Source of the DNA: Candidatus Heimdallarchaeota archaeon B3_Heim
GTDB lineage: Archaea; Asgardarchaeota; Heimdallarchaeia; Hodarchaeales; Hodarchaeaceae
Direction of reading: 5' to 3'
DNA length: 32,000 bases
Assembly (NCBI GenBank): GCA_003144275.1
Contig: NJBF01000039.1
Location: forward strand, 3,321 to 35,320
How positions within the stretch are numbered: the stretch's first letter is position 1; each line of letters starts with the position of its first letter. Shown piece after piece: positions 3,119 through 31,888 of this stretch. Made by a program: the position numbers and the translations under genes. The notes below the pieces were generated by a model, which saw only the letters and a list, made by a program, of their open reading frames with translations, was not told where the DNA came from and did no database searches.

Positions 3119-4557
3119 ATAAGATGTTAACTAAATATAATTGTTCATTAGGCTTGATAATCACTTTGATGTTATTTTTAAATCTCGCATTTCTAGAAAG
3201 TAGTCGTAATGCCAAGATTATCTGGAGTACTTCAACAACAGACACAAAGATTTCAAAATCTATGTCAAATGATAATTTCGAATTCACTGGTACCTTAATT
3301 TGGAAGAACACCGATTCAACAGCATACATTCAGCATGTGATTGTAGGGGATTTGAATGGTGATGGAATCGATGATGTTTTAGCAAGAGATCATGAAACCC
3401 ACGTCTATGCTATTGACGGAGTTTCAGGTGAAAGTCTCTGGATAAACATAGTTCCGACTGATATGGTTAGATCAATTTCTGTTGGTGACTTTAACAATGA
3501 TGGATCGGATGATGCATTAGTAGGAGAGTGGGGAGGAATGGTTTACGCGATAGAAGGGAAAACTGAAGCTATGTTGTGGAACAATTCAGACACGAATCAA
3601 AAAATATTCTCATTAGCAGTAGGAGATTTTAATAATGACGGAGTAGATGACGCCCTAGCGGGAAGCTGGGAGAAGAAGATATTAGCTATTAATGGATGGA
3701 ATGGGGAAACCTTATGGAACTACTCTAATCCTTCTGAATATATATTACCTGTTACAGTGGGGGATTTCAACAATGATGAAATTGATGATGCTCTTGCAGG
3801 AAGTCTAGATGGCAAAGTTTATGCCTTAAATGGAAGTAATGGGGAAATATTATGGATTAACACAGATCAAGATGATGCGACGATTTCTATTGCCGTAGGA
3901 GATTTCAATAATGATACAATTGATGATGTAGTAGTAGGTTGCTTATCTACTTTGAAAATATATACAATTGACGGAAATACAGGAGTAACATTGTGGAACC
4001 ACACCAATATTGGGTCAGTTCAGTCTGTAGCTGTTGGTGATTTCAACAATAATGGAGTTGATGATGTTTTAGCTGGAAGTTCAGATACCTATGTATATTC
4101 ATTTGATGGATTTACGGGAAATCAAATTTGGAACACAAGTACTCCTGAAAAAGAGGTAATTTCTGTCACAGTTGGAGATTTTGATGGTGATGGATTAGAT
4201 GATGCCCTTGCAGGTTCCTATGACACCAATGTTTACATTTTCAATGGCTCGACAGGTGAAAATCTTTGGAAAACTGATGAACCAACGGATTGGGTTGTTT
4301 CAGTAGCTATCGGAGATTTTAATGACGATGGTATTGATGATATATTAGCAGGGGGCTATGATAAATCAATCTATGCTTTCTCCCTTATTGAACCAAGTAT
4401 AACTACTGATACCAGTTTATCAGCTGATTCATCGGTGACTACTACTTTAAATTCGACTACAGATGATTCAGACGTCACTAGTTTGACATTTCCAATATTT
4501 CTTATCGCCTTGGTTATATTAAACTTCATAAAACGAAATTATTATAAAAACGGGTAA
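3115..4557 (+). CDS. Secreted/surface FG-GAP (VCBS)-repeat, PQQ-like 8-bladed beta-propeller with Ser/Thr linker and C-terminal membrane anchor
   Basis: N-terminal hydrophobic signal; eight (V/I)GD(F/L)(N/D)xxxxDDx(L/V)x loops, seven followed by IDG/NGxTG(E)xLW-type motifs; S/T-rich linker; hydrophobic helix plus basic tail (FPIFLIALVILNFIKRNYYKNG). Alternative start ATG 3124. Confidence 0.85.
   Translation: MNKMLTKYNCSLGLIITLMLFLNLAFLESSRNAKIIWSTSTTDTKISKSMSNDNFEFTGTLIWKNTDSTAYIQHVIVGDLNGDGIDDVLARDHETHVYAIDGVSGESLWINIVPTDMVRSISVGDFNNDGSDDALVGEWGGMVYAIEGKTEAMLWNNSDTNQKIFSLAVGDFNNDGVDDALAGSWEKKILAINGWNGETLWNYSNPSEYILPVTVGDFNNDEIDDALAGSLDGKVYALNGSNGEILWINTDQDDATISIAVGDFNNDTIDDVVVGCLSTLKIYTIDGNTGVTLWNHTNIGSVQSVAVGDFNNNGVDDVLAGSSDTYVYSFDGFTGNQIWNTSTPEKEVISVTVGDFDGDGLDDALAGSYDTNVYIFNGSTGENLWKTDEPTDWVVSVAIGDFNDDGIDDILAGGYDKSIYAFSLIEPSITTDTSLSADSSVTTTLNSTTDDSDVTSLTFPIFLIALVILNFIKRNYYKNG
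3343..4386 (+). repeat. Intragenic tandem repeat, 8 units, 138 bp (46 aa) period
   Basis: The V/I of each (V/I)GD motif starts at 3343, 3481, 3619, 3757, 3895, 4033, 4171 and 4309, each exactly 138 bp apart. Confidence 0.9.
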
Positions 4558-23848: not shown

Positions 23849-25474
23849 TTAGATGCTTGGTTTAAAAGTATCTATTATCTGTTTTTGTGATTTAGAGATA
23901 TTATAATGGTTGAGGATAAACTCGTCCAATTGAGTTATTTCCTCATTTCCCAAACATTTTTCTCTCTCTATCTTCATTTCTTCGATTTTTTGTTCCTCTA
24001 ATGCGGAAAATGGTAATTTAATGGGAAGTCGCTTCAAATAGTTGATTGCTATTTTAGGAAATATTTTCTTTACCGTTTTAAACTTATGGTTAAGATAAAA
24101 AGTCAATAACGAGGAGTTTAATATGATTTCTAAGTGTTTTAAATTGAAATGAGACCATTGTGGGTTGAAGGTAATTATATACACATCGCACACACAAAAA
24201 AGCCTGTTTGGATCATAAACTGCTATAAGCTCACGACCAATTCTTCGGAGGAGCAATTTAGGTGTCATATACATTGATTTATCTTTAAAAATTGATTTCC
24301 TGTTCGAATCGAAATCAATATATCTCTTATCTCCTACTATGGAAAATTTACTGATATTTCTCCCAGCTATCAATGGTATAGAATCCTTTGTAGAAGGTGT
24401 TTCGCTAGTTAAGGTTGACTTAAATCCTAACTCGATTCCACGTGTAATAGATGCAATATCCTTTAGAAATAGCGAATCTATTTCCATAATCTCAAGAATT
24501 TCAGTAATTTCTGTAGCCATATCAGGTACAATGTACCTAAACTTCTGATCCATAATCATACTTTGGTCATTCTTTTTAATCTGAGAAATTCCACTTTCAA
24601 CTGAATACCTACTGAATTCAATGATATTGGAAAGACTCTTCTCGGCTTCAGTTTTCTTATATCCCATTACAATGCATGTTTCAACAGATACTGAAGGAAA
24701 TACATTGTCATCCAACATTATGATTTTCTTGATGTAAATCTGATTGAGTAATAAATCCCTGAATGCTTGATATCGAAAGTTTGTAGTGAAGTTATTCGGA
24801 ATAAGGAAGATTAACGCTCCTCCTTCTCGTAATAGATGTATTGACCGTTCCACAAATAGAAGATAACTTTCTATTTCGGGATCAACACCTTCAAAAATTC
24901 TTCTATAGATATTTTTCTCTTCTGAAGTAAATGAAATCCCAAAGGGGGGATTTCCTATACAAATATCATATCCCTCTTTAGTATTAGGTAAGGGCCATTC
25001 ATAAAACCAATGAAACGCATTTTTAACCAAACTTATGTCTGGCTGAGTAATGTTAAGATCATCGAAGAAATAACGAGTTAATTTTTCTTCTGTATAATAA
25101 TTCTTCATGGTTTTAGGAGGTTTAATATACCCAATTAACGCATTACCAGTTTTAAACGAAATTTCAATATCCTGATTAGTCGCTAATTCCCTTTTTTTTG
25201 ACTCACATAAATTTATAGATTCATTATTTATATCTAAACCATGCAAAATTAGTTTAAAGTTTTTTAGATCACTTGCTCTGATGTTGTTCCGGTGTTTCAT
25301 AATTTCAAATAAAAATCTACCATCTCCAACTGAATTATCAAGGATGCTGATACTTCTAGAACCAAGTGGTTGGTTCAGAATCTTGTTAATAAAATCGAGA
25401 GAGAGATTGACCATTAATTTTACAATTGCTTGTGGAGTTGGGATCGCTCCTAGTGGTTCTTTTCCTTTATTCAC
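23849..25474 (-). CDS. N6-adenine DNA methyltransferase-like protein A (gamma class, Eco57I/TaqI-like with TaqI_C-type specificity domain)
   Basis: GAIPTP, motif I ILDNSVGDGRFL, GLDIN, motif IV DICIGNPPF (24941-24952), LFVERSIHLLREGG, FPSVSVETCI, C-terminal PKLLLRRI...LNSSLL. GTG start with GGAGGGGG upstream. Confidence 0.88.
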   Translation of the reverse strand: MNKGKEPLGAIPTPQAIVKLMVNLSLDFINKILNQPLGSRSISILDNSVGDGRFLFEIMKHRNNIRASDLKNFKLILHGLDINNESINLCESKKRELATNQDIEISFKTGNALIGYIKPPKTMKNYYTEEKLTRYFFDDLNITQPDISLVKNAFHWFYEWPLPNTKEGYDICIGNPPFGISFTSEEKNIYRRIFEGVDPEIESYLLFVERSIHLLREGGALIFLIPNNFTTNFRYQAFRDLLLNQIYIKKIIMLDDNVFPSVSVETCIVMGYKKTEAEKSLSNIIEFSRYSVESGISQIKKNDQSMIMDQKFRYIVPDMATEITEILEIMEIDSLFLKDIASITRGIELGFKSTLTSETPSTKDSIPLIAGRNISKFSIVGDKRYIDFDSNRKSIFKDKSMYMTPKLLLRRIGRELIAVYDPNRLFCVCDVYIITFNPQWSHFNLKHLEIILNSSLLTFYLNHKFKTVKKIFPKIAINYLKRLPIKLPFSALEEQKIEEMKIEREKCLGNEEITQLDEFILNHYNISKSQKQIIDTFKPSI

Positions 25475-25479
25475 CTTTC

Positions 25480-27222
25480 TTATTCCCCCTCCAAAATTAT
25501 CTGCTTTTCATTTTGAGATAATTCATAAAGATTGAAAACAATTTCGTCTATAATGGACCTAACATATTCCATCCTTGAATATTTTCCAAATATCCCTTCG
25601 ACGTAAGATTTATTGACTTTAATTCCTATTTGTTTTCCTAACCATGATAAGTCGTCTACATTTCTTGTTCGAAAAAACCTATCAATCTGCTTCATTAACT
25701 TAAAGGGATTACTTGTATGATTTTTCTGATTATATATTGACTGATTAACCATTTCATCTAGCAGTTGTTTTAGCTCCTTCCCTTCATTAAGATACAATTT
25801 GAAGATTTCTCCAATCACGAAGAATTGGTCTACGTTTGATTCCTTTTTTGCTGACAAACAAATATTGGGAAGCTGACTCTTTTCTACCATTTTCTTAATT
25901 TTACTACGGAAGTCAGAATTCGAATCACCATCCAAACGAGGAATTATTAGTTTATTTAGATATGGTTTATCTAAATCTTTGCTTGTTACAAATCGTTTAG
26001 TATATACTGCATTTTGTAACCACCAATTTATAAACTTAGATTGAAGTAAAGCACCATATGCATAAATATCATTAGACGAAGAATAAGGAGGAATTATGTT
26101 AATGACAGTTTCATGAGTAAGGTAGACACCTAAGGAATCAACCCAAATTGGAAGATCCAGTTGGAATTTTGGTTTGGTTTTATAAGCAATAATACGTTGT
26201 CCAATTATTTTAGGTTGTTTTAACCTTTTAAACTTAATTTCAGGAACAGCTTCATTTACATAATTACGTTCTGGAAATAAAAATCCGTGTGTAAGCGAAA
26301 CTTTTTCTATTAATGGAGTAGATACGTCTTTTACACGAAATCGACTACTTAAACCACGAAAAGCAGTCCATTCGATTCTTCTGTGATCTTTTAGGAGCTT
26401 TTCCATTAGTTTCTGCTCTGAGGGAGTGACACCCACTAAAAAATTATCGAAACGAATCGCGTTTTGAGTCTTTACGGTTGAAATGAAAGCTAGCTTTTCA
26501 TTCACAGGATCCCAGATCCCTGTTCGGAACTCTAAAGATGGAGAGATTTTTTGTAGTGTGAGGGCAACTTGCTCTTGCAATTGACCAGAAAATTGATTTG
26601 CTAAATCAAATACTTCTAAAAGACGAACCTGGGTTAGACATAATTGTCGAAATATTTTCCATTTATTAGAGTAAATAAAAGGTTTAGGTAAAATAAATGA
26701 AAGGATACCCCTGTCTTTCAAGAGATTAATTGACTTCAGTACGAAATAAAGAGCGGATTCTGACGGAATATTCTCTTGGACATCTTTAGGACGCAATTTT
26801 CTTATTTTATCCCACTCTTGTGGAGAATATTTCGCATGATGAGGAGGGTTAGATATGATTAAATCGTATTTTGTTCCTTGATTCTCTGTATCAAATTCAG
26901 TCAGAAAATTTTTGAGATGAAAAACAACAGAACATCTATCATCTTTAACAGAGTTAATTACTAATGATTTAGCTCTTGAGAGCGCAGAAGGGTCAATATC
27001 TAACGCATCGATATTGATAGAACAAAATTTATTCTTTAATATCTGAATAAGTGTTCTACAAAAAATTCCTTCTCCAGCTGATGGGTCTAACACTGAGAGA
27101 GTATCATTATCTCTTGGGTCATCAAGATAATAGACAATGTTTCCAATTATTGCCTGTACAATGTTTTCAGGTGTAAAATATTGCCCTTTTTCGCGCTGAG
27201 TACGTGACAAGCTGAGTCCCAA
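25480..27222 (-). CDS. N6-adenine DNA methyltransferase-like protein B (gamma class, atypical NPPH motif)
   Basis: REKGQYFTP, motif I VLDPSAGEGIF, ALDID, motif IV DLIISNPPH (26839-26850), LLKDRGILSFILP, C-terminal PKIIGQRI...IDEIVFNLYELS. TTG start (27222 or 27210). Confidence 0.85.
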   Translation of the reverse strand: MGLSLSRTQREKGQYFTPENIVQAIIGNIVYYLDDPRDNDTLSVLDPSAGEGIFCRTLIQILKNKFCSINIDALDIDPSALSRAKSLVINSVKDDRCSVVFHLKNFLTEFDTENQGTKYDLIISNPPHHAKYSPQEWDKIRKLRPKDVQENIPSESALYFVLKSINLLKDRGILSFILPKPFIYSNKWKIFRQLCLTQVRLLEVFDLANQFSGQLQEQVALTLQKISPSLEFRTGIWDPVNEKLAFISTVKTQNAIRFDNFLVGVTPSEQKLMEKLLKDHRRIEWTAFRGLSSRFRVKDVSTPLIEKVSLTHGFLFPERNYVNEAVPEIKFKRLKQPKIIGQRIIAYKTKPKFQLDLPIWVDSLGVYLTHETVINIIPPYSSSNDIYAYGALLQSKFINWWLQNAVYTKRFVTSKDLDKPYLNKLIIPRLDGDSNSDFRSKIKKMVEKSQLPNICLSAKKESNVDQFFVIGEIFKLYLNEGKELKQLLDEMVNQSIYNQKNHTSNPFKLMKQIDRFFRTRNVDDLSWLGKQIGIKVNKSYVEGIFGKYSRMEYVRSIIDEIVFNLYELSQNEKQIILEGE

Positions 27223-27237
27223 AAATCGTTTTTTTCA

Positions 27238-29196
27238 CTAAGAGCTGACATTCAACATATCTTTAATTTTCTTCGCAGTGAAAGTCTTACCAGTAAGTAC
27301 ATTACCACTCATTATAATAAGACGATGATTATTTTTGTTGATCATTGATACCAAATTTTTCACCTTCAAATCGTAATTATCTGATCTAGTCGATAGCTCA
27401 ACAACGTGACTCTTACTCGGAACATAGAGAGAAGATTCATACGTCCTAATTAATTTTTCATAACGCACAAAAATTGAGAGATCTGCATCGCTCTTGGTTA
27501 GAGATTCTTCTTCTTGACCTCTGGCGTCGAAATTTAATTTCAGAGCTTCCTTAGATACATTAATATGGACAAAAATCGGATTGAAAACTCTAAATTGCTT
27601 GATTAAATTCTCTCGATGATTTGGATGTGAGGGGGAATTAAAATTAGTTCCATCAAAAAATACGACATTGGATTTATTTCTACGTAGATGACAGGAAATA
27701 AGCCATATTGCGAGTCGATAAGTATGGGTACTCTCCCAAGTGGAATAATTTGGTTTATTCATACGATATAATTTTCGAATATGATCTGTTGATATTATAT
27801 TGATCTTCGGAATTTTTAACGCAGTACATAAGTTTACAACCATTTTAATTCGATTGAGAATTTCATACAACTCTTTTTTTGAATTAAGTGATGGTTTAAC
27901 CTCGACTTGCTCACGTAATAGGGTTAAACAAATTCCAATAAACTCTCGTTGTATAGCTTTTGTCTTATCTATGTTTAAGTAAGCAACAACATCATTTCCA
28001 TTGATCTTCAAATCTTTCAAATAAATTGGGCTTTGTGAGGCACTTCTCAGTTTTATATCCTTTAACAATGCTTCAATGGGATCAGCCTCATTCCCTAACA
28101 ACTTCCATGCTTTGATAAAATTAAGGTAATCTTCAAGGAATCTAGGATCGATTCTGAAAAGGAATTTCCTTAGTGCATAGTTTTTTGAAATTTCAGGAGC
28201 TAGAGTAGAATAAGGTAAAGGGACCGAATAAATTGTTAAAATGTGTATTATATCATCAATTTGCTTGTTTGGGAATTTGAGTCCTTTAAGGATACCAATA
28301 ATCAACTTCTTGTCTAATTTAGGGACAGCATGTGATAACTTATAATCAGTAGCTGATAATTGATGAATAAGAACAGAAAATCTGAGATTTACTGAAGAAT
28401 TGTTGGTAAGATTGTCTATAATACGAAAAGTAATTTCTAATCGTGATAAACCTAAACCTGATATGAGAGTATGCATGAATTCAGTATTAAATTGAGGGAT
28501 TAACTTAGCTAGTACCCCTGTAGTATGTAAGAAGTGCACAGCTTGTTGCCAATATCGCCCCGACATCAATTTCTGTAATTCAGTTCCAATTCGTTCCTTT
28601 GCAACTTGATCAAATACATCTAAATGTCTAGGAACCGCTGCAAGAGATGAATTCTCAACAGAATACCCTAATTCTGAAACAAATCGAAAGATTCTAATTA
28701 ATCGCAGCCCATCTTCCCCTAACCGAGCATCAGGATCACCTACCAACCGTAAAAGTTGATTATTGATATCAGAACGTCCATTGTAAGGATCTGTAAATTC
28801 CTCAGTTATAGGATCATATGCAATTGCATTTATTGTTAGATCACGTCGAGCAAGATCTTCCCCAATATCAGTTACAAACTGAACTTCGGAAGGACGACGC
28901 CCATCTTTATACACACCTTCGACCCGAAAAGTTGTAATCTCTATTGAAAGATTTTTAAAGAGAAGAGTAACTGTTCCATGTTGTATACCCGTCGGAATTA
29001 CCCTAAAATGAGTAAATAAATCCATAACTTCAGATGGAGAGGCGTCAGTTGCTATGTCCCAATCATTTGGTCGTGTTTCACCCCGCAAAAGATCACGAAT
29101 TGACCCACCAACGACAAAAGCCTTGAATCCAGAAGAAGAAAATTTGTGACAGATCTCAAGAATTTCCGAAGGAAAAAGATTTGGGGTTAATTCCAT
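27238..29196 (-). CDS. cca: Class II CCA tRNA nucleotidyltransferase fused to a C-terminal, circularly permuted P-loop kinase-like domain
   Basis: VVGGSIRDLL...DWDIATDA (DxD), EITTFR, DLARRDLTINAIAY, EDGLRLIRIFRF, AKERIGTELQKL. C-terminal ~190 aa: ISTDHIRK, VFFDGTN, FVHINV, SDAD, ending RLIIMSGNVLTGKT. GAGGT upstream of the ATG. CCA-adding versus CC- or A-adding activity is inferred. Confidence 0.88.
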   Translation of the reverse strand: MELTPNLFPSEILEICHKFSSSGFKAFVVGGSIRDLLRGETRPNDWDIATDASPSEVMDLFTHFRVIPTGIQHGTVTLLFKNLSIEITTFRVEGVYKDGRRPSEVQFVTDIGEDLARRDLTINAIAYDPITEEFTDPYNGRSDINNQLLRLVGDPDARLGEDGLRLIRIFRFVSELGYSVENSSLAAVPRHLDVFDQVAKERIGTELQKLMSGRYWQQAVHFLHTTGVLAKLIPQFNTEFMHTLISGLGLSRLEITFRIIDNLTNNSSVNLRFSVLIHQLSATDYKLSHAVPKLDKKLIIGILKGLKFPNKQIDDIIHILTIYSVPLPYSTLAPEISKNYALRKFLFRIDPRFLEDYLNFIKAWKLLGNEADPIEALLKDIKLRSASQSPIYLKDLKINGNDVVAYLNIDKTKAIQREFIGICLTLLREQVEVKPSLNSKKELYEILNRIKMVVNLCTALKIPKINIISTDHIRKLYRMNKPNYSTWESTHTYRLAIWLISCHLRRNKSNVVFFDGTNFNSPSHPNHRENLIKQFRVFNPIFVHINVSKEALKLNFDARGQEEESLTKSDADLSIFVRYEKLIRTYESSLYVPSKSHVVELSTRSDNYDLKVKNLVSMINKNNHRLIIMSGNVLTGKTFTAKKIKDMLNVSS

Positions 29197-29290
29197 GTTT
29201 CTACCTCTGTCTACTTTCGAATTGAGGAAAAGAGCTATTAAAACCTTTAATATCTCCTATGGATAAGCAATACTTTCTGAGAGATGATAT

Positions 29291-31888
29291 TTGCAACACC
29301 TATCTCAAAAACTAAAAGAGTTTTATGTATCACTTCTTCAAGGTGGGAGATACTTAGGTTGGTCTGATACAGATAACTTTGAGGTAGCTCTAAATTCACT
29401 CATTAAATTTCTCTCGGTATTTTATTACCAACCTTGGGATAAAATCACAGAAGAATCATTCTCTTCACTTGAAAAAGTAGAAAAATGTAAAATATTTTTC
29501 AAAATATGGATTCACTTATCTAATGGGTCTCCAGATAGAAATTATATTTCGGTTGTTGAAAAAACTAGTTATCATTTATCTCACCTTACCCCGCATGAGG
29601 AAAAATTACTACAGAGTATTCCAGAAGCAGATTGGGACCAAATGATCATATTTATGGGAAGATATCAATTTGTTTTGGTCGAAACATTCCAACAATCTGG
29701 GGGGAAAGACGAAGGAATAACCCCAGAATTTCTCTCTATATTTGCAGAAATGGTCACAAATGAATTTGAAAAAGATTTTTCTGTTTCACCCAAAGTTTCG
29801 AGTCGCAAGATAAAGGGAGTATACTACTCGCCGTGGAAAATCATCCGAGAGTTAACAAATAATCTTATAGCAAGAGATAAAGTTCAGGTGACGGTGTTAG
29901 ATCCAAGTTCTGGAACTGGTTCATTTCTTCTTTACGCAGCAGAAAGAATTTTCCAAAATCAATTGAAATCTTCATGTAAACACGCTGAAAACCCATCAAT
30001 GATTGTCAAGAATTTCATTTTTGGGGTAGATAAGGCAGGTCCAGGTATATTAGTAACCAAGCTTCGGTTGCTATTCTGGATGTTAAGTAAAAATCCTGAA
30101 TCAGAAATAGAGATCAATCCAGGGTTATTTTCGAATATTCGGAAAGGAAACTCGCTTTTTGGATTTATTAATGAGAAATTCAGTCCGTCTATTGAGATCT
30201 TGAGTTATTTTTCTCAAAAGATAGAGGAAAGTGAAGTAGAGTCATCAAAACGTGTTAAATTGACTAAAAATATGGATACAAATTGGGTACACTCTTGTAA
30301 CCAACTCAAATCAATTTTAATGAGTAAGAACTGTATAAATGGAGGAAATATTGACTCTCTAACGGAGCAATTAAATCGAGAGATTTCAAAACTGTTAGAT
30401 ATATCATACATACAATTTTTGTCTTTTTTAACGAATAAAACAGCTAAAGTAAAATCTTTTTACAATATTGACACAGAACAGCATAATTTTTTTCATTGGG
30501 GGTTGATTTTTCCCAATATTATTCTACAAGGAGGATTCGACGTATGTTTAGGAAACCCTCCTTATGGCCGTTCTATTCTGTCAGTAAAAGAGAAAAACAT
30601 CCTAAAAAAATCTTACAATTCATGCAAAGGATCTAATGCAAAAAAAGTAAGCTTGAATGCTGCAGGAGCTTTTATTGAACGTTCAATCAAACTCTTAAAG
30701 CCAGAAGGCCGTTTAGCATTCATTCTTCCATTTTCTGTTCTTAGGGTGGAAGAATTTGAAGGAATTCGGAATTACATTCTAGAAAGGACTGTGATTAACG
30801 AAATTCATGACGAATCTGCAGCTTTCCAAGATGTTACTTTAGAAATGTGTTCATTGATCTTAACTAAACATCAAAAAAGTGACTACTCGATATTTATTAA
30901 ACCCAGAAAAGGTTTGGAACCAGGATTACAAATAAGAAACTCTATTTTCATGAATTACAAGCGATTTATGATTTACTATGACACAAATTGGCAGAAGATT
31001 GTTAATGGTGGAAAATTCTCCCAAGTAATGGGAGATTATGGAGTAGATCACAGGATTGTCAAGAAAGACTTGAAACGAAATTACACCCCTTCCATAGGCT
31101 ATGTCGTTCCATTTCTTCATTCAGGAAAGTGCGTCACTCGCTATGCACTGAACCCAAATTATTTTCTTTGGTCAAAATCGACTCATAAGAATCCTAGATT
31201 TATCAACTATCTTGAGAAACCTAAACTTGTATGTACTGCAATTGGTAACGAGTTTCGGGTAGCGTACAAACCTAGGGGGATCGTACCAGGAACAAATGTC
31301 TCAATAATGGAAATTTCAAACCCCCATCATGATTTCTTTCCTCTAATGATTATACTCAATTCTTCTCTAATTAATTATTTATTAAAACGATATATATTGA
31401 ACTATTCTCATCTAACGGTCTATCTACACAAATATTATACACAATTAATACCAATAAAGTATCCATGGTCTTATGAAAAGGAATGGAGAATAATTGGGAC
31501 ATATATATCCTTATTAAATCAGATACAACAATTGAACATTGGACTCTCTTACCAAAAAGAGTTGAAATTTTTGGAAGAAATTACAGAGCACCTTGTTTAC
31601 CATTTATATCTTCCAGAAATATATATAGGTTCAAAGTTAACGTTAACATCTATACTTCAGGATTCCCTTCTTGAAATCCAATTTGAGGACTGTATTGAGG
31701 CACTCTTATCCCCAGCTAGCAATATTGAGGAGATTATAAGTGAAAAAAATTCTGATGTAATGAAAGCTGAAGCAAGAATACTAACTGTCATTAGTACATT
31801 GAAAACTGATTCAATTCTCAATATCCTATCTCAATCCAAGCAATTAAGAGAAAAATCGGGAATAACGAAAAAAAGAGATTTCGTCTAA
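29291..31888 (+). CDS. Large N6-adenine DNA methyltransferase-like protein C (Eco57I/type IIG-like MTase-TRD, no recognisable nuclease domain)
   Basis: RKIKGVYYSP, motif I VLDPSSGTGSFL, FGVDK, NIRKGNSL, FHWGLIFP...GGFDVCLGNPPY (30554-30565), FIERSIKLLKPEGRLAFILP, C-terminal PKLVC...ILNSSL. TTG start. Confidence 0.88.
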   Translation: MQHLSQKLKEFYVSLLQGGRYLGWSDTDNFEVALNSLIKFLSVFYYQPWDKITEESFSSLEKVEKCKIFFKIWIHLSNGSPDRNYISVVEKTSYHLSHLTPHEEKLLQSIPEADWDQMIIFMGRYQFVLVETFQQSGGKDEGITPEFLSIFAEMVTNEFEKDFSVSPKVSSRKIKGVYYSPWKIIRELTNNLIARDKVQVTVLDPSSGTGSFLLYAAERIFQNQLKSSCKHAENPSMIVKNFIFGVDKAGPGILVTKLRLLFWMLSKNPESEIEINPGLFSNIRKGNSLFGFINEKFSPSIEILSYFSQKIEESEVESSKRVKLTKNMDTNWVHSCNQLKSILMSKNCINGGNIDSLTEQLNREISKLLDISYIQFLSFLTNKTAKVKSFYNIDTEQHNFFHWGLIFPNIILQGGFDVCLGNPPYGRSILSVKEKNILKKSYNSCKGSNAKKVSLNAAGAFIERSIKLLKPEGRLAFILPFSVLRVEEFEGIRNYILERTVINEIHDESAAFQDVTLEMCSLILTKHQKSDYSIFIKPRKGLEPGLQIRNSIFMNYKRFMIYYDTNWQKIVNGGKFSQVMGDYGVDHRIVKKDLKRNYTPSIGYVVPFLHSGKCVTRYALNPNYFLWSKSTHKNPRFINYLEKPKLVCTAIGNEFRVAYKPRGIVPGTNVSIMEISNPHHDFFPLMIILNSSLINYLLKRYILNYSHLTVYLHKYYTQLIPIKYPWSYEKEWRIIGTYISLLNQIQQLNIGLSYQKELKFLEEITEHLVYHLYLPEIYIGSKLTLTSILQDSLLEIQFEDCIEALLSPASNIEEIISEKNSDVMKAEARILTVISTLKTDSILNILSQSKQLREKSGITKKRDFV

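Follow-up and report, generated by a model that had tools for sequence, protein, structure and literature searches.

A class II tRNA CCA-adding enzyme joined to a predicted, circularly permuted P-loop kinase domain in Hodarchaeales

We analyzed a 32,000-nucleotide stretch of DNA (the window) from Candidatus Heimdallarchaeota archaeon B3_Heim, a member of the Hodarchaeales, comprising positions 3,321 to 35,320 of contig NJBF01000039.1. The open reading frame (ORF) at 27238-29196 on its minus strand translates into a protein of 652 amino acids (aa). Sequence comparison and structure prediction together make it very likely that this protein is a class II CCA-adding enzyme (aa 1 to about 440) carrying a P-loop kinase fold, in permuted order, at its C-terminus. 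The approximately 210 residues beyond the CCA portion comprise a linker helix and a kinase domain of about 190 aa. The features of the gene are as follows.

27238..29196, minus strand: whole gene for the fusion of a CCA-adding enzyme and a putative permuted kinase; stop codon at 27238-27240 (ORF list and translation)
28747..29121, minus strand: class II nucleotidyltransferase head (aa 26-150) with the catalytic motifs GGSIRD and DWD (Pfam PolyA_pol, 118.7 bits)
27880..28746, minus strand: neck, body and tail of the CCA enzyme (aa 151-439), with motif D, EDGLR (aa 161-165), and the RNA-binding region (PolyA_pol_RNAbd, tRNA_NucTran2_2)
27823..27879, minus strand: long linker helix joining the CCA tail to the kinase domain (aa 440-458; AlphaFold2 helix 440-458 of the full-length model and 2-19 of the domain model)
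27331..27810, minus strand: predicted kinase core from strand 2 to the last helix, in canonical order (aa 463-622; AAA_33 profile, hhalign, VIA-align)
27775-27792, minus strand: STDHIR (aa 469-474)
27643-27657, minus strand: FDGTN (aa 514-518)
27520-27534, minus strand: lid, N555 to R559
27481-27495, minus strand: KSDAD (aa 568-572)
27244..27324, minus strand: predicted relocated unit of strand 1, Walker A and helix 1 (aa 625-651; 6PF2K profile, PFKFB3 match, AlphaFold2)
27283-27306, minus strand: Walker A, GNVLTGKT (aa 631-638; computed from the ORF), followed by 14 residues and the stop

The first 440 or so residues are, on sequence evidence, a complete class II (Bacillus-type) tRNA CCA-adding enzyme that should be catalytically intact. 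The head exceeded the cut-off of its family, PF01743, by a wide margin (118.7 bits versus 23), and PolyA_pol_RNAbd was matched at aa 177-237 with 33 bits (Pfam). Six head residues of the GGxxRD and DxD motifs (G30, G31, R34, D35, D45 and D47) were invariant in 26 full-length homologues. The same was found for two neck motifs, motif B (RRD; R117, R118 and D119) and motif D (EDGLR; E161, D162, G163, L164 and R165). Neck motifs B (RRD) and D (EDxxR) form the protein template that selects CTP or ATP. In the PDB, aa 1-445 came closest to two CCA-adding enzymes, that of Planococcus (6ibp, E 2e-50) and that of Geobacillus (1miv, E 1e-45). Body and tail have diverged, and tRNA_NucTran2_2 gives only a weak match at aa 301-417 (19.5 bits versus 27). 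The equivalog cut-off of NCBIfam PRK13299 was also missed (254.9 versus 290 bits), by a match that spans aa 13-244 only.

Beyond the linker helix, the chain carries the motifs of a P-loop kinase, with the nucleotide-binding loop at the end. A regular-expression scan detected exactly one Walker A in the fusion, at aa 631-638 and with none before STDH, and exactly one in each of the 26 full-length homologues. In all 26 it lies 12-20 aa before the C-terminus, and the P-loop unit makes up the last 28 residues. Residues G631, N632, V633, L634, G636 and K637 were invariant, and the Walker A varied only between T and S at aa 635 and 638. Elsewhere in the domain, T470, D471, R474, F514, T517, N518, N555, R559, S569 and A571 were invariant among the 26 homologues. 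As identity within the domain is 36-71% across 24-27 homologues, motifs that are invariant or nearly so indicate more than chance. Another set of residues is invariant only within the fused family: H472, H491-T492-Y493, W498, C502 and an H-P-x-H-R insert.

A first-pass annotation, made from the sequence alone, had listed STDHIR, FDGTN, the lid, KSDAD and GNVLTGKT, noted a P-loop only at the end of the domain, and proposed that a kinase domain was fused to a CCA-adding enzyme. All five motifs lie where it had placed them, and the Walker A at the domain end is the only one. A complete class II enzyme, with PolyA_pol and PolyA_pol_RNAbd matches in Pfam, does precede the domain. It had also suggested a look at homologues, for which loss of the terminal GKT or a normal order would have spoken against permutation; the order of elements was the same in 26 of 26, each with its Walker A at the C-terminus.

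Profile comparisons placed the two parts of the domain out of order. In Pfam, positions 19-124 (of 143) of the AAA_33 profile matched aa 456-565, and positions 9-39 of 6PF2K, which cover the P-loop, matched aa 620-650, so that the matches are not collinear. Over 27 members of the family the best library matches were AAA_33 (E 1e-5), 6PF2K (9e-5) and Zeta_toxin (4e-3). When the family profile was compared with the PDB, PFKFB3 was matched in swapped pieces, profile positions 172-211 falling on chain residues 5-44 and positions 63-114 on 95-144.

Re-ordering, in which the last 30 residues of each aligned sequence were put at the front, restored collinearity. Among the six-frame ORFs of the window's genome, a canonical AAA_33 kinase of 200 aa was matched collinearly by the re-ordered profile but in two swapped pieces by the native one. 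BLASTP with the re-ordered sequence gave an alignment that crosses the artificial junction (E 1e-4 versus 0.043). The target for hhalign was built by aligning 19 canonical standalone kinases of Heimdallarchaeial genomes. In native order the match had a score of 80 over 109 columns (E 3e-12) and began only at STDH; after re-ordering it began at the P-loop, and the score rose to 110.5 over 138 columns (E 2.8e-17, probability 98.9%). A scan of 14 cut points gave the maximum only when the P-loop unit stood ahead of strand 2 (cuts between domain residues ~145 and 184), and cuts inside the aligning stretch (domain residues 40-120) lowered the score to 64-73. The residues paired by hhalign were GNVLTGKT with GLPGTGKT, STDHIRK with STD.VRR, FDGTN with DGT, the lid Arg with the lid Arg, and KSDAD..IF with SDAd..IY. 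In all, four independent routes gave the same result, a match to kinase profiles that is not collinear.

Structure prediction is consistent with a single domain. From the 27-sequence alignment, AlphaFold2 modeled one compact domain with five strands, a predicted local distance difference test (pLDDT) of 85.5 and a predicted template-modeling score (pTM) of 0.84. Its elements run from a helix (residues 2-19) and a strand (26-30) through helices, a strand (72-76), a helix, a strand (102-106) and the lid helices to a strand (158-162), a helix (169-182), a strand (187-191) and a helix (198-212), the last two with block-mean pLDDT of 88-94. The full-length model repeats this secondary structure (pLDDT 86.7, pTM 0.78) and ends in a strand (626-630) and a helix (637-651), with block-mean pLDDT of 84-93 over aa 611-650.

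The domain model was compared by VIA-align with 48,161 PDB representatives, and the top matches were almost all P-loop kinases: Kti12 (Z 8.3), PSTK (8.0), PFKFB (7.8) and UMP kinase (7.3). Polynucleotide kinases followed, with CthPnk of C. thermocellum at Z 7.2 and T4 Pnk at 6.3. In nearly every row, model residues ~21-185 were aligned with a target from about its residue 24-40, past the target's P-loop helix. A separate model from the ESM Atlas fell with AAA_33/KTI12 clusters (template-modeling score 0.6-0.73) over aa 463-623. Cumulatively, these results support the following: aa ~463-652 would form a single globular P-loop kinase domain of the AAA_33/polynucleotide-kinase/PSTK-Kti12 group, and this domain would be circularly permuted. 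Its chain would enter at strand 2 with the Asp-x-x-Arg phosphoacceptor motif, pass the Walker-B-like FDGTN at the end of strand 3, the lid and the last helix, and reach strand 1, the Walker A and helix 1 only in its final 28 residues. The permuted kinase of polynucleotide-kinase or AAA_33 type that had been proposed at first is supported by the out-of-order profile matches, the re-ordering test, and the structure prediction with its fold search. As for the checks suggested with it, moving the last ~30 aa to the front made the profile alignment collinear through the P-loop, and modeling gave a confident single domain whose P-loop kinase neighbors align from after their P-loop helix.

A homology search returned 28 proteins built in the same way, 599-679 aa long, all from metagenome-assembled genomes assigned to Hodarchaeales, Heimdallarchaeia or 'Promethearchaeota'. 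Among 83 genomes of the class, the domain was confined to the genus-level group of the window, where it occurs in 16 of 21 genomes and in the window's own (17 of 22); the other families of the class have only canonical kinases of ~195 aa, which match profile positions ~26-147. The fusion is present in the closed chromosomes CP070695.1 and CP070760.1, indicating that it is not an assembly artefact. An exhaustive phmmer search of the domain against 1.84 billion representatives returned eight proteins. Seven were the same fusion or its fragments, and the eighth was a weak match to a repetitive 2,998-aa protein (30% identity in 10 stretches). Neither that search nor a profile search of 116-385-aa proteins, which returned only fragments from short contigs, detected a standalone permuted kinase or an evolutionary intermediate, be it a tandem kinase or a protein with P-loops at its two termini.

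The closest non-permuted relative is the canonical 200-aa AAA_33 kinase of the same genome (G000:C50:16250-16852; locus L003:151-753), which scores 73 bits for AAA_33 and has weak matches to PSTK (TIGR03574, 30 bits) and KTI12 (33 bits). Since the nearest canonical relatives are standalone kinases of ~195 aa from the same archaeal class, the domain most likely derives from such a kinase, through duplication and truncation or through fusion. The genes around the canonical kinase in two genomes give no hint of function; they encode a kinase of APH type, an ATPase resembling HerA, a deoxynucleoside kinase and a ~320-aa protein that Pfam does not match. In two genomes the kinase gene is followed by an ORF of ~317-329 aa with no Pfam match.

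Genomes with the fusion also have a second, short class II paralogue of ~373-414 aa, which in one of them (G058) is only a 209-aa frame at a contig end. The short paralogue of the window's genome (G000:C43:43875-45038; locus L004:176-1339) has 387 aa and all catalytic motifs, and is 33% identical to the fusion in head and neck. The pair of long and short paralogues occurs in sixteen further genomes of the group. Of the two, the long paralogue is the more CCA-like (254.9 versus 177.7 bits for PRK13299; 175 versus 116 bits for 6ibp). An archaeal class I CCA enzyme was not found in the window's genome, which is 94% complete, and fusion-bearing genomes generally have none. Three genomes of the same order (G048, G067 and G069) do have a class I (tRNA_NucTransf2) match; G048 lacks any class II gene and G067 has both types, and contamination of 6-8% could explain some of these cases.

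Our survey reproduces the loss of class I and the presence of one or two class II copies in Hodarchaeales, an exchange described in a recent preprint (10.64898/2026.05.29.728689). One Hodarchaeum class II enzyme was shown there to add CCA in vitro, with no statement of whether it was the long or the short paralogue. The words 'kinase' and 'P-loop' are absent from its text, and terminal regions are treated as alignment noise. In the 3.9-Mb assembly of the window's genome, ARAGORN predicted 16 tRNA genes, which suggests that many tRNA genes contain introns or are unassembled. An automatic check detected no encoded CCA directly past the predicted 3' end in any of the 16; in some cases the predicted end itself closes with CCA or ACCA.

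Three adenine methyltransferase genes surround the fusion.

29291..31888, plus strand: divergent methyltransferase of 865 aa, N6_Mtase/Eco57I/TaqI_C (Pfam), 94 base pairs upstream of the fusion gene
25480..27222, minus strand: co-oriented downstream methyltransferase of 580 aa, N6_Mtase/Eco57I-type with motif IV NPPH (Pfam), 15 base pairs after the fusion gene
23849..25474, minus strand: third methyltransferase of 541 aa, Eco57I/N6_Mtase/TaqI_C (Pfam)

Four diverged genomes share a conserved cluster in which a divergent methyltransferase of ~860 aa is followed by the fusion and then by a co-oriented methyltransferase of ~580-610 aa, the last two a few bases apart or overlapping. Their kinase domains are 44-71% identical to that of the window's fusion, and the outer flanks differ. 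The third methyltransferase is kept in two of the four loci (L019 and L020) and replaced in the others (L017 and L018) by an unrelated protein of ~300 aa with no Pfam or PADLOC match. PADLOC left the fusion without a match and assigned its neighbors only to generic type II methyltransferase models; no named defense system fits. The trio (23849-31888) is not accompanied by a nuclease. The downstream methyltransferase has NPPH in place of NPP[YFW]; the His was seen in four of five orthologues checked, the fifth having NPPY. It has no match to the TaqI_C specificity domain, unlike both of its neighbors.

As for what the kinase domain does, it is probably a catalytically active ATP-dependent phosphotransferase or ATPase. 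In this group of kinases, the equivalents of K637 and T/S638 bind the phosphates of ATP, D471 is the general base, R474 clamps the substrate phosphate, the D515 region coordinates Mg, and R559 closes the lid. The first-pass annotation had called the domain probably active; what stands of this is the invariance of the catalytic-type residues, its sole support. Because the kinase is tethered to a tRNA-binding enzyme in every member of the family, the bound RNA is probably its substrate, and we give an RNA or tRNA substrate even odds. The Asp-x-x-Arg signature and the affinity to AAA_33 favor a 5'-OH polynucleotide kinase, so that the 5'-OH end is our best, if tentative, guess among substrates.

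We propose that a tRNA would be held by the body and tail of the CCA enzyme while the tethered kinase uses ATP, with K637 and T638 acting on its phosphates and D471 as general base. R474 and R559 would act on the substrate phosphate and the transition state, and a hydroxyl of the bound RNA, most likely at the 5'-OH end, would be phosphorylated. In this way one protein might attend to the 5' and the 3' end of a tRNA alike, either to repair the molecule or to mark it for decay: phosphorylation could mend a 5' end that has been broken, or allow decay to proceed 5'-to-3', beside the 3'-end work of the CCA enzyme. The first-pass annotation had likewise suggested a one-chain enzyme for tRNA end healing, repair or quality control, a role that is still an inference here. 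A bifunctional protein of this kind, RNA-phosphorylating kinase included, is the best explanation as a whole, and we put its probability at roughly 0.5. The wider notion that the kinase phosphorylates tRNA (at the 5'-OH or the 3'-terminal ribose) on the CCA enzyme and forms, with the methyltransferases, a repair, marking or surveillance module specific to Hodarchaeales is a long shot.

Several points weigh against a bifunctional, RNA-phosphorylating enzyme. As for the fold, the native-order score for PF13671 lies under the gathering threshold (17.8 versus 27 bits), as the AAA_33 model expects the P-loop first. The three-layer alpha/beta fold of these kinases has a parallel sheet of five strands; the model shows five strands, and its VIA-align Z values of 7-8 are middling on the tool's own scale. 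Foldseek gave no match in the PDB at E <= 0.001, a result that we attribute to the non-sequential relationship, since a sequential aligner is expected to perform poorly on a permuted domain. The terminal strand would be packed in the middle of the sheet judging from its DSSP strand call, pLDDT, pTM and topology rather than from coordinates, and the P-loop is predicted to lie close to D471.

As for function, no result obtained here indicates the substrate, and a 5'-kinase would have no obvious link to 3'-CCA synthesis. In known complexes with tRNA, the tail of a class II CCA enzyme binds the elbow, a long way from either acceptor end, and it is the tail that the kinase domain follows. The genome encodes RtcB, a ligase that uses 5'-OH ends directly; PF09414 (Rnl2-type RNA_ligase), the sole family of 5'-phosphate-dependent RNA ligases searched, has no match in it, and a Clp1-type polynucleotide kinase was not found. 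The conserved neighbors are DNA-type adenine methyltransferases and not RNA-repair genes.

The domain could instead be of PSTK or Kti12 type. As an ATPase or kinase dependent on tRNA, it would modify or monitor the tRNA that the CCA enzyme holds, at its acceptor end or in its aminoacyl state. It could then proofread the finished tRNA, release it, or phosphorylate its 3'-terminal ribose. We consider this unlikely, even though it fares best among the alternatives. The two top structural neighbors, Kti12 and PSTK, are both tRNA-binding P-loop proteins, but their Z values lie within 1 unit of those of PFKFB, UMP kinase and polynucleotide kinase and are effectively tied with them. The weak PSTK and KTI12 matches of the closest canonical relative in the genome point in the same direction, while only one of the 27 fusion members matched KTI12 itself (E 0.08). 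PSTK and Kti12 have a separate C-terminal tRNA-binding domain for which the CCA body could stand in here. The invariant Asp-x-x-Arg, however, is typical of 5'-OH polynucleotide kinases as well.

A domain that merely binds a nucleotide, or that phosphorylates a small molecule, is an improbable alternative; CCA addition could then be tuned by a domain that senses ATP or CTP levels, or that has a nucleotide or metabolite as its substrate. The invariant Asp and Arg argue for catalysis over mere binding, and a macromolecular substrate is suggested by the attachment of the domain, in all members, to an enzyme that binds tRNA. Small-molecule kinases do appear among the structural matches (UMP/CMP kinase, adenylate kinase, APS kinase, gluconate kinase and chloramphenicol phosphotransferase, at Z 6-7.3), the AAA_33 and Zeta-type groups have members that phosphorylate small molecules, and a deoxynucleoside kinase lies near the canonical relative in the same genome. 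The AAA_33, 6PF2K and Zeta profiles nevertheless fit better than those of nucleoside monophosphate kinases.

We regard as quite doubtful a module linked to the methyltransferases, in which the fusion would take part in nucleic-acid modification, surveillance or a defense-like function and leave ordinary tRNA maturation to the short paralogue. Such a division of labor would suit the presence of a short paralogue beside the fusion in each genome, but it is the long paralogue that is the more CCA-like. The gene order persists in the four genomes although their fusion kinase domains are only 44-71% identical and the outer flanks differ; against this, synteny inside one genus-level group may persist with no functional link. 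Moreover, the locus looks vertically inherited and is near-universal in the group, unlike mobile defense islands, and PADLOC recognized only the methyltransferases, by generic type II models, and not the fusion. Lastly, an artefact (mis-assembly, a frameshift, or a chance Walker A ending a degenerate domain) can be rejected: GxxxxGK[ST] by itself is short enough to occur by chance, but the order and the motif are constant in 26 full-length homologues from independent assemblies, two closed genomes among them, the alignment is collinear over the artificial junction, and the fold is confident.

Hodarchaeales are often placed closest to eukaryotes among the archaea, and a module that phosphorylates tRNA would, if real, mean that the archaea nearest to eukaryotes control their tRNA ends by a new enzymatic route. 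If the kinase acts on tRNA, 3'-end synthesis would be coupled in a new way to a second end-modifying reaction; if it does not, the domain would still offer a clean natural case of a P-loop fold that tolerates its nucleotide-binding loop at the C-terminus. The first-pass annotation knew of no description of this architecture, and the literature that we searched described neither a tRNA CCA-adding enzyme fused to a kinase nor a naturally circularly permuted P-loop kinase of the polynucleotide-kinase group. That Hodarchaeales have exchanged the archaeal type of CCA enzyme for the bacterial/eukaryotic one was reported only recently, in a study that overlooked the extra domain (10.64898/2026.05.29.728689).

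Compared with known systems, the N-terminal portion resembles the class II CCA enzymes of Bacillota (Geobacillus stearothermophilus, 1MIV; Planococcus halocryophilus, 6IBP), with which it has head, neck, body and tail and the motifs GGxxRD, DxD, RRD and EDxxR in common. Relative to these enzymes and to the Hodarchaeales 'CCA2' of the preprint, the fusion carries an additional ~210 aa of linker helix and putative permuted kinase. The kinase portion shares with T4 Pnk (1LY1), the Pnkp kinase of Clostridium thermocellum (4GP6) and the AAA_33 kinases of Heimdallarchaeia the Walker A, S-T-D-x-x-R, D-G-T, the lid Arg and S-D-A..(I/Y), and VIA-align points to the same fold. It differs from them in its permuted order and its fusion to a nucleotidyltransferase. 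Given a sub-threshold score and an order of elements other than the defining one, it is not a regular member of AAA_33. Healing enzymes of the T4 Pnk and bacterial Pnkp type combine 5'-OH polynucleotide kinase activity with a 3'-phosphatase module (HAD or metallophosphoesterase); profile scans detected no phosphatase or ligase domain in the fusion, which argues that it is not an enzyme of that type.

PSTK (3A4L) and Kti12 (6QP0), the best structural neighbors, have a P-loop domain that works on a tRNA held by another domain. They show the canonical order and their own C-terminal tRNA-binding domain, whereas the fusion lacks that domain, its chain ends after helix 1, and sequence similarity to them is marginal. 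For a class II CCA enzyme with a second catalytic domain at its C-terminus, the nearest precedent is the multifunctional CCA protein of E. coli (PRK10885), whose second domain is an HD phosphatase/phosphodiesterase acting on 2',3'-cyclic or 3'-phosphate ends. There the added domain is a phosphohydrolase of the HD type; here a P-loop phosphotransferase is predicted. Natural circular permutation is well known for P-loop GTPases, and the permuted GTPases YlqF/RbgA, YjeQ/RsgA, CpgA and Lsg1, which function in RNA and ribosome biology, are the nearest precedent for a permuted P-loop domain. They belong to the TRAFAC class, have the order G4-G5-G1-G2-G3 with a different cut point, and are not kinases.

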